DNA of 13,326 nt from the UHGV virus genome UHGV-0203667, one strand, 5' to 3'. A model generated the notes under the pieces. The model had not been told where the DNA came from. It searched no databases and worked only from the letters and a program-made list of their open reading frames with translations. The position numbers were made by a program, and so were the translations under genes. Numbering within the stretch: position 1 is the stretch's first letter; every line of letters starts with the position of its first letter. This stretch comes from a virus. Shown here piece by piece: positions 532-13,008 of the stretch.

Positions 532-539
532 CCTACCAG

Positions 540-565
540 GGGGCCATCACGGCCCCTTTTTATTT
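540..565 (+). terminator. Rho-independent terminator: GGGGCC / atcac / GGCCCC followed by TTTTTATTT
   Basis: Perfect 6-bp GC stem (540-545 / 551-556), 5-nt loop, T-tract 557-565, 9 nt after the stop codon of the 1-531 ORF. Confidence 0.75.
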
Positions 566-578
566 ATCCCTCAATTAA

Positions 579-611
579 CCCCTATTTATCCCCTATTTAA
601 TGCCTATTTAT
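579..611. repeat. Three tandem 11-bp repeats (CCCCTATTTAT / CCCCTATTTAA / TGCCTATTTAT), helical-phase AT-rich array
   Basis: Read directly: units at 579-589, 590-600, 601-611, immediately downstream of the terminator. Confidence 0.55.
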
Positions 612-691
612 TGATTTAATCCGTTTTATGTCACAACCGCCCGGTTGACAGAGTAATAGAGAGGGTGTAACCCTTTTTCGTAATACTAATA

Positions 692-707
692 AAATCAATA
701 AGTTAGC
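692..707. repeat. 16-bp exact direct repeat AAATCAATAAGTTAGC, copy 1 (copy 2 at 8424-8439); contains an IHF-consensus-like WATCAANNNNTTR
   Basis: Identical 16-mer at both places; flanks also align with an indel (TAATACTAATA-AAATCAATAAGTTAGC vs TAATATTGTGATCTAAATCAATAAGTTAGC). Confidence 0.6.
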
Positions 708-1446
708 TTAATAAGCCTTTTCTCTATTTTTGTCAAATTTAACATACCCTAAAAAACTGCAAAATCTGGCTGCAAGATTATCTGCAGCTGGATTTCTTAC
801 ACCTCATTTTGTGGTATCACCCTGGCTAGTTTGTGCATAAATTGAACAGTTTTTAACATTTCCTCCTCACCTGGTAACCACACAAAAAGCTAAAAACGAG
901 GCACAGATAATCTTAGAGGCCTGTTTTCTTGTTATCACTCTGGAAACGCCGTAGAAGTGATTTTGATGAAAGATGACCTACCCTATTACACCCCTATTTT
1001 TTGTTATCACAATTGCATCCTGTGCGGTGTATGGCTATGTACTGAAAGCGGTTTTGGGTGTGGGTGTCAGAAATATCCATTAGCGGTATTAATACCTGTC
1101 AGATGTTCGTCTGAGGTGCCAGGCAGGCGCTCCCCTACCTCCCTTTTTTCTTCTAACAATTCTCAAATATCCGACCACTACTGACCACGTTGCTATTATG
1201 TTAATTCTTAAGCTTTGCTGTATGTTGTGCACATTATTTATTCAGGTGGCTGTACGTAAATTCTGTGCCCACTGATCATGATTTTTAAATCAGATTTTGT
1301 AGTGCGCTTTATTAGTGTAGATAAGATCTATTATGTTAAATGCAATTTTCCCAACCCTTCAAATCAATGACTTACGTGTAAGCATGCACTAACACCCCAC
1401 ACAGCACATTAGCCGTATAGATGGCTATACCCCACATATTTGATTG

Positions 1447-1469
1447 TTTTGTAGTCATTCCCCTGATCA
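1447..1469. repeat. Imperfect ~23-bp direct repeat TTTTG(T/C)AGTCATT..C..TGAT, copy 1 (copy 2 at 2177-2201); shares the CAGTCAT core also seen at 1974 and 2161
   Basis: Manual alignment of 1447-1469 with 2177-2201; CAGTCATACT occurs exactly twice (1972-1981 and 2161-2170). Confidence 0.4.
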
Positions 1470-2016
1470 TTTAACCAGTATAGCTTGTTATCTGCAGACC
1501 ACAAAATAGGAATTTACATCTGATTAACATAATCTGTTAGCATGATCACTATTACCCACACAACAATAACCCCATGTAAGCCTCTTCAGGCAATTTATCG
1601 GCGTGTTGGTGTGAACAGTCTTTCATGTTCTTTATGAATGCATTGTCCTGTGTGAGGGAAGGATGGACTGCCTCAGGGGCCATACTTATGATGCCCGGTC
1701 AACATAGCTATTGATAAAATCAACGGGTGTTGATCTACATATTTCCCACACATGAGAGGAAATCAGAGCAAAGAGAGAGGAGAGAGGTTTGTTAGTCACA
1801 TATGGTGATTTGAGCTCATCTCAAACCTTCTACGAAGGCCTTTGCTAGTCAAAATAGGTCAATTGACGGCTAATACAGAGTAAAAAATCAGATGCAATCA
1901 CTCCCCACCTGTTGGGATTAACGGCCCCGAGTCAAGGCCTATGCAACGAGGGTATTTCCTACAACCCCTTTCAGTCATACTCAGGCACCACACCCCGGTA
2001 AATATTACCCTACTAC

Positions 2017-2328
2017 CCCGGAAGATTTCTCCGCACTACCTGTAAAATATTTTTACTACTAACACCCTCGAGACGAGGGCTATTTGCACGAGTTTAACGC
2101 TCTCGGGAAGAGCTATAGGCGATTCTACCTGTGAAGAATTTTCACACCTGTGTGTTTATACAGTCATACTTTCCTGTTTTGCAGTCATTGCACCCATGAT
2201 ACACAGCCTCTAACTACTGAAGATTTCTCACTACTTAACCACCATACCTACCCACACCCCTGAGAATTTCTCACCACTACTACCGAAGATTTCTCACTAG
2301 TACCCCTGAGAATTTCTCACTCTAATAG
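2017..2328 (+). repeat. Iteron-like array: six copies of core GA(A/G)(A/G)ATTTCTCAC, the last three exactly 23 bp apart
   Basis: Cores at 2021-2033 (degenerate), 2133-2145 (degenerate, GAAGAATTTTCAC), 2219-2231, 2262-2274, 2285-2297, 2308-2320; each preceded by a C-rich tract (CCCC/CTACC). TGAGAATTTCTCA is itself a 6-bp inverted repeat. Confidence 0.6.
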
Positions 2329-2438
2329 ATAAAGGAATAGATCAATAAAAAGACCTCCCCCCTAACCCCCAGGGGGAATGGGGAGGGATCAGAGAGTGGG
2401 GAAGGTTTTCTAAGGGAAAAGCTTAACCCACAAATGAA

Positions 2439-2467
2439 AGCCTAAAGAGCATGAGCGACTCTTTAGG
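2439..2467. other. Strong hairpin: 10-bp stem GCCTAAAGAG / CTCTTTAGGC with 9-nt loop
   Basis: Perfect complementarity read from sequence; no flanking U-tract on the plus strand. Confidence 0.4.
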
Positions 2468-2839
2468 CAATCTGTGTGGGGTGACAATGTATTCCATACA
2501 TGACACGTCACCCAATTGTGTGTGGGGAGCGTAGTGCTATAGCACGTAGCTTTATAGTGTGGAGTCCGGATAAGAGACTTCTGTTTCCAATCCGGACCGT
2601 TTAAGCGAGTGGTTTCTCGCGCGGGTGCACGCACACATATATAAAGGATACACTCATAAATCGAAAATAAGGCCCCTAAATGGCCTTCTGGCTGCATTAA
2701 CCTGTGTGAGTAGTGCAATTGCATTACCTGACCTCTAAATCGCGTTAGAATCGATTTTAGAGCGCTTAAGGCAAAAGTGCTCTCCCTCCCTTGTGGACTT
2801 GCTTGTACCTATAGCACACCTAAATGATAATAATTCTCA

Positions 2840-2868
2840 TTGACAATTGGTTGACAATATGATAAGAT
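2840..2868 (+). promoter_or_regulatory. Candidate sigma70 promoter P0 (TTGACA, 17-bp spacer, TAAGAT) within a tandem TTGACAAT duplication
   Basis: -35 TTGACA at 2840-2845, -10 TAAGAT at 2863-2868; a second TTGACAAT at 2851-2858; sits about 35 nt upstream of the RBS of the small ORF at 2904. Confidence 0.35.
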
Positions 2869-2903
2869 TATAAATAGGGGGAGAAACAGATCCGGAGGTC
2901 AAT

Positions 2904-3053
2904 GTGGAAATTACAGATGTAATAGCGATCATCAACCTGGCTGTACTGTGGTGCGGTGTTGCCTACATAGCCGGAGTAACTGCAATCGACAACCTTGAAG
3001 AAAAAATGATAGATAAATACAAAAAGATTGTTGACAATCTCGCAAATAGCTGA
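2904..3053 (+). CDS. Small hydrophobic peptide (49 aa, GTG start), predicted single transmembrane helix with charged C-terminus
   Basis: SD GGAGG at 2894-2898, 5-nt spacing to GTG 2904; translation (V/M)EITDVIAIINLAVLWCGVAYIAGVTAIDNLEEKMIDKYKKIVDNLANS; stop TGA 3051-3053. Below the length cutoff of the ORF track. Overlapped by the minus-strand ORF 2868-3317, judged spurious. Confidence 0.4.
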   Translation: MEITDVIAIINLAVLWCGVAYIAGVTAIDNLEEKMIDKYKKIVDNLANS

Positions 3054-3059
3054 TAAAAT
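3031..3059 (+). promoter_or_regulatory. Near-consensus sigma70 promoter P1: TTGACA, 17-bp spacer, TAAAAT, with an A-rich upstream tract
   Basis: -35 at 3031-3036, -10 at 3054-3059; spacer contains the recurrent motif TCTCGCAAA (3038-3046); A-rich 3001-3026 resembles an UP element. Confidence 0.6.
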
Positions 3060-3065
3060 ATAAAT

Positions 3066-3182: not shown

Positions 3183-3398
3183 ATGGCAAGCAACGGACCG
3201 ACTAGCCCCCTGGTTAGCTGGACTACTGATGAGATCGTCGAAAACGTGCTCAGCGGCAAGTTTTATAAAAATTCTGTTTATGCTTTTATCCGTCGTAATA
3301 AAGGAAAATATCCACACATTGAAGCGGCAATTTTAGAACTGAACCGTCTTCGCCTTGAGCGTGAGCTGGCTAAATACACCAACAACATTGATAAATAA
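3183..3398 (+). CDS. Small hypothetical protein (71 aa), possibly regulatory
   Basis: SD AGGAGG at 3170-3175 with 7-nt spacing to ATG 3183; stop TAA 3396-3398; first gene after P1 and the attenuator. Confidence 0.75.
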   Translation: MASNGPTSPLVSWTTDEIVENVLSGKFYKNSVYAFIRRNKGKYPHIEAAILELNRLRLERELAKYTNNIDK

Positions 3399-3411: not shown

Positions 3412-4308
3412 ATGGCAAGTAATTACGGGGAGGTTTTTAATCCCCATTTCGAACGCCTCATTCAGTACACTTTTGATAAACCAGTAGCAACAACAATTGC
3501 TAATAAAAAGACTGGAAAAACAAAAGAGCGATTTAATTTAGACCTGATAGAGGTAACAATTTATGGAAAAATGGCAGGTTTTCATTTAAACGGGCAAGAA
3601 ATATTTATCTCAGAGCAGACCTTAGCAAAAATATGTGGTGTGAGTGATAGAAAAATCATCGAATCTATCAAAACTCTGGAAAATGCCGGGCTTATTTCTA
3701 AAGAAAGCCGGAAAGGTATGTCTAACATTTACAAACTGTTAATTACTCCTTCTCAAATCTGCAAAATGTGTGATGAACAGAAGATAGAACCAATGAGTAA
3801 TGCAGGTGGTGAAGATAAACAGCCTCAGGAAGCCCCAAAACAAGCCACACAGCAAGCTAAAAAGGCTAAAGTAGTGCAATTGCCTACCCAAGACACTAAA
3901 GCGCCTCAAATTAACGCTGTTAGTGACAAGCCACGCCGGGGCCGTCCTGTGAAAGATGTAACCGATGGGGGCTGGATTGTCCTGGGTGAGAGTGAAGCTA
4001 AAGATAGAATGCGCTCACTGTGGGAAAGCAAATACAAAGGTTTAAATAAACGTTGCCCGATCCGTTTGTCAAAGATTCAGGAGGATTTTTACACCACAGA
4101 GGAGGTAATACGCCATAAAGGCAATAGAGACGGTGAAATCTGGAAACCGGAAGAATACTGGCATTTAACCAGACCTGTTTTTATTTTTGCAAATAAACTT
4201 ATTGGGATGGGATTTGAAATATTGTTAGATCAAACTTACGGAGATTATCCTGAAATATTGTGGAGAAATGTTAGAAAGAATAAAAAAGGCATTTTAGAGT
4301 TTAGATAA
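3412..4308 (+). CDS. Winged-HTH DNA-binding protein with AT-hook-like linker (KPRRGRPVK) and a C-terminal domain of unknown function; putative replication initiator or regulator
   Basis: ATG 3412 after a GGGGG SD (the track's upstream TTG at 3355 has no RBS); N-terminal wHTH-like segment FISEQTLAKICGVSDRKIIESIKTLENAGLISKE; low-complexity linker EDKQPQEAPKQATQQAKKAK; 299 aa. Confidence 0.8.
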   Translation: MASNYGEVFNPHFERLIQYTFDKPVATTIANKKTGKTKERFNLDLIEVTIYGKMAGFHLNGQEIFISEQTLAKICGVSDRKIIESIKTLENAGLISKESRKGMSNIYKLLITPSQICKMCDEQKIEPMSNAGGEDKQPQEAPKQATQQAKKAKVVQLPTQDTKAPQINAVSDKPRRGRPVKDVTDGGWIVLGESEAKDRMRSLWESKYKGLNKRCPIRLSKIQEDFYTTEEVIRHKGNRDGEIWKPEEYWHLTRPVFIFANKLIGMGFEILLDQTYGDYPEILWRNVRKNKKGILEFR

Positions 4309-8411: not shown

Positions 8412-8423
8412 TATTGTGATCTA

Positions 8424-8439
8424 AATCAATAAGTTAGCC
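8424..8439. repeat. 16-bp direct repeat AAATCAATAAGTTAGC, copy 2 (copy 1 at 692-707)
   Basis: Exact match to 692-707; begins 13 nt after the tape-measure stop codon. Confidence 0.6.
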
Positions 8440-8462
8440 TGACCGGATAAACTCCAGGCAAG

Positions 8463-8493
8463 AAAAAAGCCCCTAAGTGTTAACAAAGGGGCT
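8463..8493 (-). terminator. Intrinsic terminator for the leftward head operon (AGCCCCT / 12-nt loop / AGGGGCT followed by UUUUUU on the minus strand)
   Basis: 7-bp stem 8468-8474 / 8487-8493; A6 on the plus strand (8463-8468) gives a U-tract on the minus-strand RNA; the plus-strand side lacks a U-tract. Confidence 0.55.
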
Positions 8494-8523
8494 CTTCTCC
8501 GGTATCCTTTTGATGCGGGGCAA

Positions 8524-8571
8524 AACCTGCTAACAAAAATCAACCTCTCGCGAGACTAATGTTAGCAGGTT
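8524..8571. repeat. Perfect 12-bp inverted repeat AACCTGCTAACA ... TGTTAGCAGGTT with 24-nt spacer containing palindrome TCTCGCGAGA
   Basis: Arms 8524-8535 and 8560-8571 are exact reverse complements; inner palindrome 8546-8555; the spacer carries a degenerate copy of the AAATCAAC(C/T)TCTCGC motif. Confidence 0.55.
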
Positions 8572-8913
8572 GCCGGAAGGTAAGTCAACTCCGGCCTATA
8601 AACCTTAAAGCGACTATAAAATTGCCCCGCCAATTGTGATGATCCGACCTTTGAGGCGGGTCCGGTGCCCAGGGGGTGCAGTGATGCACAAACCAGGCAA
8701 CGATAAACAGGCTAACAGTGATAGCGGCGCTCTCTCAGCGCACTAAATCCTAACCAGTCCGGGAAAGAGGCTGGCTCTATCGACCGCTCATGCACGGGAC
8801 AATGCATACCTGATAAAGGATTCTCACAAGGGACCAATCGCGAGAAAAGAAGTGGAAAGGGGCTGATTTGTGGTGTATCACTACGGCCTCAAAAGACACC
8901 CTATTGCCTTTTT

Positions 8914-11978: not shown

Positions 11979-12458
11979 TTGATCACCTGCGATTTAAATT
12001 AACTCCCCTCAAAGGGCTCAGGTATAACCTCTCAAACCACGACAGGCTCGGGCCGAAAAGTTATGCCGGAAATCTAAAGGGGGATTGATATAAGGAGAGG
12101 GAGATAGCCCCGCACCGTCCAAGCGGGGGCTATTCCATATGGGGAAAACCAACAACAGTTGGCTGATAGTTCACTGCATGGTTACGGTTGCTAGAGAGCA
12201 CTATCACGAAAGGCACTCCCCCGAATCAGTTCAGGCTGCGGTCACATCAGCGGGGAAATACCTTTCGGGATAGCTACCCACACCGAAAACCCGCAAAAGA
12301 AAACTGTGTGGATAACTAGCCCAATAGGAGAATTAATCGACCACTCTAAGATGATCAGGGTAGTGTTATTTATAAGGCGGCACCGCTACCTGGTCGCCGT
12401 TACTTTGGAGGAAAATACGGCAAATCACCTTCGCTAAATGATTCACGGTATACTGTAT

Positions 12459-12487
12459 ATTATATCAGTATTTACTCACATTGTCAA
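12459..12487 (-). promoter_or_regulatory. Consensus sigma70 promoter P2 for the leftward head operon: TTGACA, 17-bp spacer, TATAAT on the minus strand
   Basis: Minus-strand -35 is the complement of 12482-12487 and -10 the complement of 12459-12464; 22 of 29 positions identical to P1 (3031-3059); leaves a ~470-nt untranslated leader before ATG 11978. Confidence 0.6.
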
Positions 12488-12576
12488 CACCCTGATTATA
12501 TAAATTCTAATAATTAGCGTAGTAACGGTATTTTCAGACCTCTATCAATCCCATCAATACGTCACCTCATCCCTGA

Positions 12577-12622
12577 CCTGCTTTGCAGGCTTGGCACACA
12601 GCCAAGGTCGCAGCTATGCGAC
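12577..12622 (+). promoter_or_regulatory. Three-hairpin element copy 2 (CCTGC-ttt-GCAGG; CTTGGC-acaca-GCCAAG; GTCGCA-gcta-TGCGAC)
   Basis: Same three-stem architecture as 5117-5159; stem 2 differs by A>G paired with T>C, stem 3 by C>T paired with G>A; loop GCTA conserved. Confidence 0.5.
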
Positions 12623-12629
12623 TCCTATC

Positions 12630-12660
12630 ATCTATCATAACTTTTTCATTCGTGATAGAT
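12630..12660. promoter_or_regulatory. 8-bp inverted repeat ATCTATCA / 15-nt spacer / TGATAGAT, candidate operator
   Basis: Arms 12630-12637 and 12653-12660; lies between the three-hairpin element and the small rightward genes; ATCAAT repeats nearby (12544-12558, 12671-12682). Confidence 0.3.
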
Positions 12661-12757
12661 ATCTTTTGATCAATATCAATGTTTTCCTGGGATTTGCCCG
12701 GCTATAGTTCGAATCAAGGAAGGGGAGCATTGATAGCACCAAAACCGAACAAACAAA

Positions 12758-12772
12758 TCAACTTCTCGCAAA
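12758..12772 (+). promoter_or_regulatory. Conserved leader motif TCAACTTCTCGCAAA directly 5' of the SD of the 12784 gene (identical copy at 13301-13315)
   Basis: 15-nt exact repeat; both copies are followed by an SD-like sequence (AAAGGTGA / AAAGGGG); the TCTCGCAAA core also lies in the P1 spacer (3038-3046). Confidence 0.45.
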
Positions 12773-12783
12773 AGGTGATAGTT

Positions 12784-12906
12784 ATGGGTATCAAGAACAG
12801 TGCCAGCGCATGGCAAAAGGCCAGGTTTCATCACCCACACATTGTTAAGGCAATTGAGGTGGTTGGAGTGTTAGCCCTGATGTTAGCTCTGTGTGTGGAG
12901 GTGTGA
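12784..12906 (+). CDS. Small peptide (40 aa) with hydrophobic C-terminal segment, predicted membrane peptide
   Basis: SD AGGTGA at 12772-12777, 6-nt spacing to ATG 12784; MGIKNSASAWQKARFHHPHIVKAIEVVGVLALMLALCVEV; the track ORF starts earlier (12679) but has no RBS there. Confidence 0.45.
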   Translation: MGIKNSASAWQKARFHHPHIVKAIEVVGVLALMLALCVEV

Positions 12907-13008
12907 GATGGGCAAAGGAGGCAAAGCATTTTTTAATAGGTCTGGCTATCCTGGATGTTCTACTAATCATGATTGAGCGGAGTTTATGAACAGCATTGAG
13001 AGGAGTTT

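Follow-up and report, generated by a model that had tools for sequence, protein, structure and literature searches.

Introduction

What is the role of a stretch of some 2.3 kb in which no gene can be recognized, lying at positions 566-2839 of a small mobile element of Escherichia coli? The element is that of virus genome UHGV-0203667, and the window, by which we mean the whole of the DNA analysed here (13,326 nt), can be aligned from end to end, at 91-93% identity, with complete E. coli 'plasmids' that are circular and 13.2-13.7 kb in size, five to seven in number. An earlier note on the same DNA, made from its letters alone, had held the stretch to be non-coding and functional, with a replication origin or cis-replication region, a packaging site or a long structured noncoding RNA locus as its likely role. 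We find the stretch to be truly non-coding and selectively maintained, and from comparison with relatives and phages we put at roughly 0.6 the probability that it is a composite cis-acting control region of a ~13.3-kb plasmid-form element, itself a probable satellite of rV5-like phages. The earlier note had treated the region as a single unit, whereas four conservation zones can be told apart: 640-1800 is 90-100% identical among relatives with almost no indels, 1800-2350 is hypervariable (53% alignable), 2350-2820 is a mosaic of alleles and 2822-2903 is conserved again. The alignment with relatives that the note had proposed as a check thus revealed conservation in the first and last of these zones, and hypervariability in 1800-2350.

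Non-coding character of the stretch

Nineteen distinct copies of the element (the window and 18 relatives, the latter referred to by L numbers) were aligned for tests of conservation and of open reading frames (ORFs). ORFs of at least 40 amino acids within 566-2839 are limited to 957-1184 (plus strand), 1089-1232 (minus), 1552-1683 (minus) and 2410-2724 (minus). Two of these, 957-1184 and 2410-2724, had been flagged and dismissed as genes before; they are intact in 9 of the 18 relatives and in none, respectively. Among the 18 relatives no ORF of at least 25 codons was both always intact and 3-periodic, no ORF of the region matched Pfam, and codon periodicity was absent from 640-1799 (variable columns 66:61:77 over the three phases, p = 0.37). 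A conserved coding frame or a frameshifted pseudogene across the region was also looked for in the relatives and not found. The homologous gap measures 2.2-2.9 kb in the relatives; neither RefSeq/PGAP nor PLSDB annotates anything under it in any complete relative, and gene calls on Logan/NCBI metagenomes leave it empty likewise, so that the ORF-free nature of the ~2.3-kb stretch extends to some 20 relatives in which no annotation or gene caller places a gene. Several motifs of the region exceed shuffled-sequence expectation. With no reading frame, and with the left part under constraint (see below), the view that the block is both non-coding and functional is upheld.

Candidate replication module

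The features of this part, with the initiator gene, are as follows.

1801-1945, no strand: variable, largely window-specific stretch, including the palindrome GTCAATTGAC at 1856-1865
1946-2150, plus strand: iteron-like units that occur singly and belong to other specificity types (cores near 1951, 1997, 2019, 2040 and 2128)
2213-2322, plus strand: main iteron array of four units with core (C/T)GARRATTTCTCAC, start-to-start distances 43, 23 and 23 bp
2325-2352, no strand: AT-rich patch (~21% G+C) adjoining the last iteron, candidate DNA-unwinding element as read from the sequence
3412-4308: gene for an initiator (Rep) of the HTH_36/lambda-O-like kind (PF13730 HTH_36, 31.8 bits, above cut-off; PHROG replication initiation and O-like families, E down to 1e-10)

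Comparison of the relatives gives good support to 1946-2903 as a replication module, the first of the roles named in the earlier note: iteron type tracks the allele of the 3412-4308 Rep in 19 elements, and the layout is colinear with that of rV5-like phages. The array itself, noticed before, comprises five copies of a 21-nt family at spacings of 198, 43, 23 and 23, with a period of 23 at 2256-2321 according to Tandem Repeats Finder (TRF), and the units at 1990, 2013 and 2036 also follow each other at 23-bp intervals. As in iteron origins, there are at least three direct repeats of 17-23 bp in helical phase, a cognate initiator with a winged-helix or helix-turn-helix (HTH) domain, here the 3412-4308 Rep, is encoded nearby, and repeats and initiator change together. 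Every relative has the array in the same place with the spacing 43/23/23, and the 14-15-bp palindromic core is of seven different types. When Rep proteins were grouped by identity and the core types tabulated per group, the seven types mapped onto the Rep allele groups: group A goes with A1/A2, A'1 and B3 with T2, A'2 with T3, B1 with T5, B2 with T4 and C with T6. Window-like Rep proteins thus accompany cores of (C/T)GARRATTTCTCA or CGGARRATTTCTCC, the 94%-related pair L002/L019 has GGWATTTCC cores in common with L006, L008/L015 have GGTAAAWWTTACC cores, L003/L020/L021 TGTMAAAATMT cores and L005/L009 GGYAAATATTWCC cores, and four TCAAYATATCA units (T6) are found exclusively in L007, L011 and L018, whose Rep is unrelated (group C). 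Two relatives, L007 and L015, carry an extra, presumably residual, array. A pattern in which repeats and initiator are replaced together is what marks an iteron origin in comparisons of this kind.

The perfect palindrome GTCAATTGAC pointed out at 1856-1865 is present, although it lies within a stretch (~1800-1860) that the relatives lack almost without exception: the gap fraction is 0.98 for 1802-1851, and the 1802-1861 bin is spanned in the alignment by L013 alone. The CAGTCAT repeat family, also described before, is real and consists of the pairs 1447/2177 and 1972/2161.

A folded element shared with Vequintavirus phages

Between the iterons and the rep operon lies a series of hairpins, and a similar arrangement was found in phage JohannBauhin (JB), one of the rV5-like myophages (Vequintavirus).

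2355-2386, minus strand: GC-rich hairpin A, terminator-like for leftward transcription (2378-2356 with TCTTTTTA)
2439-2468, minus strand: hairpin B, with conserved stem and exchanged loop
2470-2770, plus strand: multi-hairpin element, homologous to the folded segment upstream of Vequintavirus bas53_0218
2834-2903, plus strand: rep-operon promoter (TTGACA-17-TAAGAT with TG, duplicated TTGACAAT) and ribosome-binding site; operon start at 2904
JohannBauhin 131480-132490: candidate origin/regulatory module of the phage, with an HTH_36 protein, tandem repeats, an AT-rich promoter region and a ~370-nt folded segment

The inverted repeat and the hairpins that had been read from the window were all recovered, the former at 2355-2386 and the latter at 2439-2467, 2564-2597 and 2735-2770. 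Hairpin A is present in most relatives with varying lengths of its C/G runs, L011 and L018 have a different, phage-like hairpin at the position of hairpin B, and L007, L011 and L018 match JB 132126-132185; hairpins thus hold their position while sequence is swapped between alleles. Minimum free energy (MFE) z-scores of -3 to -6 occur solely between 2350 and 2700, and 2430-2830 as a whole folds at z = -4.5 on the plus and z = -3.9 on the minus strand. A profile of the satellite family (alignment of 2340-2903) matches JohannBauhin 132,201-132,470 on the same strand with E 1.2e-22, the reciprocal phage profile has a single match in the window, at 2613-2724 (plus strand, E 3.2e-4), and blastn against the phage segment returns a 62-nt, 85% match in ten relatives and a further 61-nt match in three. 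Within the best-matching 65 nt there is a 6-bp stem of which three pairs differ between phage and satellites, each changed on both sides; the stem pairs in 99% of cells vs 29-61% with the partners slid, and its covariation score was reached by 0 of 500 shuffles. The 23-nt apical part is invariant save for one T/G position that is polymorphic among phages too. The G·U pairs of the shared structure fall on the plus strand, which favours a sense rather than an antisense element. The element may work at the RNA level, as leader or origin transcript, or in the form of DNA hairpins.

In the phage, the folded segment (z = -4.0) shows 95-99% conservation across the majority of 119 Vequintavirus records, mostly without annotation; the tiny ORFs bas53_0216/0217 annotated on it are probably spurious. 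It lies downstream of four 21-22-bp tandem repeats (TAACTGTCCGTGATACGGACAC) and of the gene (JB 131480-131830) for a 116-aa HTH_36 protein (PHROG 'replication initiation protein'), to which the N-terminal part of Rep in the satellite can be aligned (E 1e-5). Phage and satellite have in common the order repeats, AT-rich DNA, folded element and gene start. The central hairpin of the window (2563-2598) has arms GTCCGGAT...ATCCGGAC that share the half-sites GTCCG/CGGAC with the phage repeat core GTCCGTGATACGGAC, which may be a coincidence.

These data bear on the alternative that the stretch is mainly an RNA locus, for example one producing a leftward RNA from a promoter at ~2857-2830 that would end at the terminators at 2468-2440 or 2378-2356 and serve in copy-number control or as antisense on the homologous transcript of the helper. 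Such a locus would account for the three leftward terminator-like hairpins and the candidate divergent promoter, for the strong folding of 2430-2830 on both strands, for hairpin positions that are kept despite sequence exchange and for the 62-nt phage match in ten relatives, but not readily for the G·U pairs on the plus strand, which speak against an antisense role, nor for the hairpin at 2687-2669, broken in several relatives. An Rfam 15 covariance-model scan of 566-2839, another check that the earlier note had proposed, matched no family at E up to 1, and 640-1800 shows no structure signal, its MFE z-scores being near 0. The 'long structured noncoding RNA locus' of the earlier note therefore survives for ~2430-2770 (z of about -4.5, phage homology, one covarying stem) and not for 640-1800, and as an explanation of the stretch as a whole we regard it as possible but doubtful. 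Rfam returned only spurious sub-threshold matches on the phage segment, a ctRNA_p42d match at 8458-8498 was rejected as a sub-threshold hit to a terminator hairpin outside the region, and a covariation scan of 620-1804 gave nothing credible, its matches being dominated by a non-homologous allele of L016/L021.

The rep promoter region at the right-hand end is 95-97% identical in all relatives. In 13 of the 18 relatives there is an extra ~90 bp between window positions 2780 and 2800 with a strong promoter-like TTGACA-17-CTATAAG; the window does not have this insert and may therefore have one promoter fewer upstream of the rep operon. The late-gene motif of rV5 is TggTAaAAtA (Kropinski et al. 2013, PMC3606486). 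A T4-type late promoter, TATAAATA at 2867-2874, was rejected, rV5-like phages using a TGnTAnAATA-type motif that is found at 3051 and 12458 only, outside the region. The first of these, TGATAAAATA at 3051-3060 (plus strand), upstream of the genes for a 71-aa protein and Rep, matches the rV5 late motif and could equally be an ordinary extended -10 promoter.

The constrained left block, a putative Xer site and the phage ORF-free gap

The left part of the stretch differs from the replication module in kind, and its features are best read beside an ORF-free gap of the same phages.

640-1800, no strand: constrained non-coding block, neither coding nor stably folded, identified by its identity relative to fourfold sites
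1172-1600, no strand: exchangeable cassette, replaced in L016 and L021 by ~430 bp of unrelated sequence in which the dif-like site and CTCTTCAGGCAAT alone are retained
1314-1341, plus strand: dif/cer/psi-like XerC/XerD core AGTGTAGATAA-GATCTA-TTATGTTAAAT, 28 bp with a 6-bp centre
1148-1171, minus strand: 24-nt element, 96% identical to JB 92478-92501 in the phage gap (blastn E 3e-3)
1066-1077, minus strand: GATATTTCTGAC element, common to the phage gap (JB 92614-92625)
1581-1594, plus strand: CCTCTTCAGGCAAT element, common to the phage gap (JB 92746) and kept in the L016 replacement allele
973-1083, plus strand: hydrophobic 36-codon ORF, type I toxin-like, peptide MTYPITPLFFVITIASCAVYGYVLKAVLGVGVRNIH
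JohannBauhin 91001-93520: ORF-free gap of ~2.5 kb, at 91.0-93.5 kb of the 135.6-kb phage

Identity to the relatives is 0.957 in 700-1170, 0.950 in 1171-1620 and 0.913 in 1621-1800. For calibration, identity to the window was determined at the codon positions of ten genes, giving 0.957 at position 1, 0.974 at position 2 and 0.842 at fourfold-degenerate sites (967 sites). The density of substitutions in 700-1620 is thus ~3.6-fold below that of fourfold sites, with almost no indels, and since identity equals that of codon position 1 and exceeds that of fourfold sites, purifying selection acts here as on first codon positions in the absence of a frame.

Within the block, the Xer-type site at 1314-1341 is the single match in the window (0 of 200 shuffles) and falls within a 31-nt invariant run (1314-1344). 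E. coli dif has the sequence GGTGCGCATAATGTATATTATGTTAAAT (PMC2731167). The XerD arm TTATGTTAAAT equals that of E. coli dif at 11 of 11 positions, and the XerC arm AGTGTAGATAA agrees with GGTGCGCATAA at 7 of 11. The unrelated allele of L016/L021 carries a correctly spaced site of its own, AGTTCGCTTTA-CGCACA-TTATGTTAAAT, of which the XerC arm also scores 7 of 11. The motif TATGTTAAWT occurs three times in the window, always inside 737-1341, a count that 0 of 200 shuffles reach. A multimer-resolution site is to be expected in a small plasmid with no detected recombinase gene, and 1314-1341 is, on these matches, a likely site of this kind, on which host XerCD would act. Neither this site nor the likeness to phage non-coding DNA described next had figured in the earlier note.

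The phage gap is shown as a 'non-coding' box with a change in skew in the rV5 genome paper (Kropinski et al. 2013, PMC3606486), and in our comparisons it is 88-95% conserved in more than 100 Vequintavirus genomes. It also contains a dif-type site, GGTGCGCATAA-T(G/A)GGTA-TTATGTTAAAT, with both arms equal to dif and conserved in seven phages, save that in phage nomo the XerC arm begins with T in place of G. Shared 12-mers pile up on phage 90.5-94.5 kb (14-15 vs 1.0±2.0 in other 2.5-kb phage segments), and control satellite regions showed no such k-mer enrichment on the phage gap. The 24-nt element has a Smith-Waterman score of 43 vs a null of 20.6±2.6 (8.6 standard deviations (sd) above), is matched by a profile of the phage gap at E 0.017 (nhmmer), lies inside the satellite invariant run 1137-1171 and is conserved in the seven phages with one variable position (G/A). 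For CCTCTTCAGGCAAT the local alignment score is 32 vs 21.8±2.4 (4.2 sd above the null), with a single variable position among the seven phages; CTCTTCAG occurs four times in the phage gap, and three of the five copies of GATATTT[CG][AT]G in the 135.6-kb phage lie within these 2.5 kb. The k-mer signal is due to these few elements together with the dif arm. In the satellites the shared elements sit in invariant or retained parts, and they are largely conserved among the seven phages. We conclude that left block and phage gap share cis elements, and make no claim of homology for the block as a whole as there is no extended alignment, orientations are mixed and the profile E-values are modest.

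The site in JohannBauhin is a near-perfect dif, GGTGCGCATAA-TGGGTA-TTATGTTAAAT, and one phage record annotates the gap only as a 34-bp 'repeat_region'. The label 'FtsK translocase' on the gene bordering the gap in phage nomo found no Pfam support for the JohannBauhin gene at the corresponding position, which is also unrelated to an 86-aa HTH protein of the satellite.

Could 640-1800, or a part of it, instead be a pac site on which the headful terminase of the helper acts, with plasmid concatemers as substrate and the Xer-like and other shared elements as secondary? The element has no detected terminase or portal gene, rV5 has been reported as circularly permuted and hence as packaging by headful (PMC3606486), one relative is deposited as a 39.6-kb trimer, and a pac mimic would be expected to take the form of elements conserved in the non-coding DNA of satellite and phage alike. 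Three phage records moreover open inside the gap, but such openings may be arbitrary. The shared elements are also short, and a second non-coding interval of the element, 8412-8913 (98.3% identity), is an equally good candidate, and we consider a pac site in the left block unlikely.

Hidden small genes are far less probable still. One example would be a type I toxin, paired with an antisense RNA and encoded by the ORF 973-1083: its 36-aa product is hydrophobic, a T-rich hairpin lies after it near 1113-1152, and 14 of 18 relatives have it intact. However, the ORF is broken in the other four, with the start codon destroyed in at least L001, L004 and L007, it varies by codon position as 3:9:4, which is not coding-like, it has neither a Shine-Dalgarno sequence nor a Pfam match, and the whole block lacks periodicity. 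Former genes in decay, or neutral spacer whose repeats are due to chance, for which the mosaic structure and many indels between 1800 and 2800 and the youth of the family (core identity ~95%) might be cited, are barely plausible given the ~3.6-fold deficit of substitutions and few indels in 700-1620, iterons that co-vary with Rep, homology to conserved phage non-coding DNA and the lack of any frame signal.

The element as a probable phage satellite

The element is carried by 7 of 5,426 complete E. coli genomes, and all 13 places at which it occurs are plasmid-borne, none chromosomal. A further relative, NZ_CP043822.1 (L009, 1-39610), is deposited as a 39.6-kb plasmid made up of three tandem, non-identical copies of the element; it represents either a multimer assembly or a true trimer, and bears on multimer resolution and headful packaging. 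Besides Rep, the element encodes tape-measure, tail-completion, Dit-like and capsid proteins, and these four have homologues in the structural module of rV5-like myophages (Vequintavirus; JohannBauhin) at 24-49% identity (Dit-like/tube initiator 49%, tail-completion-like 45%, tape measure 25%, capsid 24%). Searches for domains and families and the comparison with phages found no terminase, portal or integrase among its genes, and the 86-aa protein has a resolvase-type HTH only, with no recombinase gene detected. The capsid family is tiny (18 clusters, E. coli only). On the presence of Vequintavirus structural homologues together with the lack of terminase, portal and integrase, the element is probably an undescribed plasmid-form satellite of virulent rV5-like phages. 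At the DNA level megablast gave no match to phages and a search in distant mode only one 50-nt match at chance level, and among viral contigs there was neither an exact match to the element nor a relative of its major capsid protein.

Under our reading, Rep would bind the tandem 23-bp iterons, as their co-variation suggests, and unwinding would start at the AT-rich patch 2325-2352. Hairpins A and B could serve as insulating terminators that keep leftward transcription out of the origin, the folded element could, as a leader or as an origin transcript, allow a factor of helper or host to couple rep expression or origin firing to infection, and the rep-operon promoter would close the replication module. 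At the dif/cer-like site, of which the match to known sites is plain, host XerCD would resolve plasmid multimers. Finally, the element would retain copies of the cis sites of its helper and could thereby be served by the very proteins, of host or helper origin, that act on the latter: Xer, and possibly factors for replication or headful packaging.

Several points weigh against this reading. The dependence of the element on a helper is itself putative, and the origin, Xer and RNA functions have all been deduced from sequence. For the origin, DnaA boxes by the strict definition show no enrichment and do not occur next to the iterons, there being only 8/9 matches at 1551 and 1741, and L007 keeps T4-type iterons despite its group C Rep, which fits only if they are remnants. 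For the folded element, the central hairpin of the window is a non-phage-like allele and the window's own phage match is modest, and the covariation amounts to few independent events since all three changes fall on one phage/satellite split. For the left block, the likeness to the phage gap consists of a few 12-24-nt elements in mixed orientation, two of the three being marginal when taken singly (nhmmer E 0.017 and 0.7), agreement of the XerC arm with dif is only 7/11, and no accessory sites for ArgR, PepA or ArcA were identified, an informal look at 1228-1246 only having turned up no convincing ARG box.

A further-reaching version, which we advance tentatively, sees the region as a mosaic whose cis modules were copied from the virulent helper or co-evolve with it. 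The origin module with its folded RNA would sense infection and switch on replication, the left block would mimic the 'non-coding box' of the helper, and dif-type sites would let XerCD resolve multimers or fuse satellite and helper replicons for headful packaging. With this element, rV5-like phages would then have their first plasmid-form satellite.

Iteron origins and Xer sites as such are features of known kinds. Theta origins with iterons and a winged-helix initiator (pSC101, R6K gamma, P1 oriR, F oriS, and lambda ori with O) likewise have phased ~23-bp repeats beside an AT-rich patch and, nearby, an HTH initiator gene with its own promoter, and they too shift specificity by joint exchange of repeats and initiator. 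Unlike them, the element has 14-15-bp palindromic cores, single units of other types before the main array, no DnaA box beside the iterons and a ~300-nt folded element between origin and rep promoter, and its module is paralleled in a virulent 136-kb phage. With dif, cer (ColE1) and psi (pSC101) the Xer-type site shares the 11-6-11 layout, the dif XerD arm TTATGTTAAAT and, as in the latter two, its location on a small plasmid, whilst its XerC arm is degenerate (7/11), no accessory sequences were identified, the cassette around it is exchangeable and the putative helper has a near-perfect dif. The box of rV5 (PMC3606486) is similarly an ORF-free block, of ~2.5 kb, and has in common with the satellite block a dif-type site and the 24-nt, CTCTTCAGG and GATATTT elements, but there is no extended alignment, order and orientation of the elements differ, and the phage box lies between convergent units where the satellite block abuts the origin.

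Among satellites, P4 (ori/crr, cos), the Staphylococcus aureus pathogenicity islands (SaPIs) and other phage-inducible chromosomal islands (PICIs; ori, pac/cos) and the PICI-like elements (PLEs; ori, RepA) resemble the element in having their own initiator, a repeat origin and cis sites that look like those of the helper, and P4 also in its plasmid form. In contrast to P4, PICIs and PLEs, for which an integrase and a chromosomal attachment site are typical, no integrase domain was found in the element and it occurs only as a plasmid, always extrachromosomal; its apparent helper is a virulent rV5-like myophage, it has capsid, tape-measure and tube-initiator homologues, and its helper likeness lies in non-coding modules. 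The inovirus satellite pDolos (cited in PMC12282955) is, like the element, an autonomous phage satellite in plasmid form, but it is a rolling-circle plasmid of a filamentous phage, with neither structural genes nor an iteron origin. Only one plasmid satellite had been shown according to this 2025 review, which adds that 'many others may exist' (PMC12282955).

In the searchable literature we found no described plasmid satellite of rV5-like phages, no dif site in rV5, no plasmid with rV5-type structural genes, no origin module with a folded element shared with a virulent phage, and no case of dif-type sites in both a phage non-coding box and a block that resembles it. The rV5 group consists of large virulent coliphages, which are common and have a place in phage therapy collections. 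To our knowledge, their origin, their packaging signal and their 2.5-kb 'non-coding box' are all uncharacterised. A 13-kb plasmid with miniature, constrained versions of these would be a tractable handle on the phage origin, on pac and on the role of dif in a lytic phage and, if the reading is correct, would extend satellites to a plasmid-borne type parasitising a virulent myophage. The stretch also illustrates how 17% of a small element can escape gene callers and Rfam and still be functional.

Other features of the element

The remaining features comprise the left edge of the stretch, the neighbouring genes and two further non-coding intervals.

1-531: gene for a membrane-like protein (ORF1)
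538-565, plus strand: intrinsic terminator of ORF1 and left boundary of the region (stem 538-558 of 8 pairs, then a T-run)
561-629, no strand: array of A/T blocks (TATTTA, CAATTA, TTTAAT) in 11-bp phase (TRF 561-611, period 11, 4.6 copies)
2904-3053 and 3183-3398: genes, small ORFs
8412-8913: 500-bp non-coding interval between the convergent tape-measure and tail-completion genes
11979-13008: second ORF-free region, of ~1 kb, upstream of the capsid operon

The terminator that had been placed at 540-565 is there, with its stem at 538-558, and is kept in most relatives. The phased 11-bp tandem repeats reported at 579-611 are real, although they start earlier, at 561. Relatives keep only TATTTA every 11 bp and the 5-nt spacers flip between CCCC and GGGG; the array is a candidate for bent DNA or for a protein-binding array. 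An exact inverted copy of the 11-bp repeat CCCCTATTTAT lies at 2870-2880; the idea that one protein has its sites in both was rejected, because relatives preserve no more than TATTTA, their spacers flip and the copy near the promoter changes while the array does not.

The interval 8412-8913 is the most conserved part of the element (98.3% identity, no indels) and a candidate packaging or other cis site. On the minus strand of the region 11979-13008 (89.5% identity) lie the only perfect DnaA box of the element, TTATCCACA at 12307-12315, and, at 12458-12467, an extended -10 motif of the rV5 type, TGATATAATA. In relative L011 (GCA_002463705.1 contig NTNY01000053.1, 13400-21041), a 30-kb derivative, there are inserted genes of the APH/APH_6_hur (strA/strB-like), DDE transposase and TetR families, and from these aminoglycoside phosphotransferase genes it follows that the element can pick up resistance cargo.

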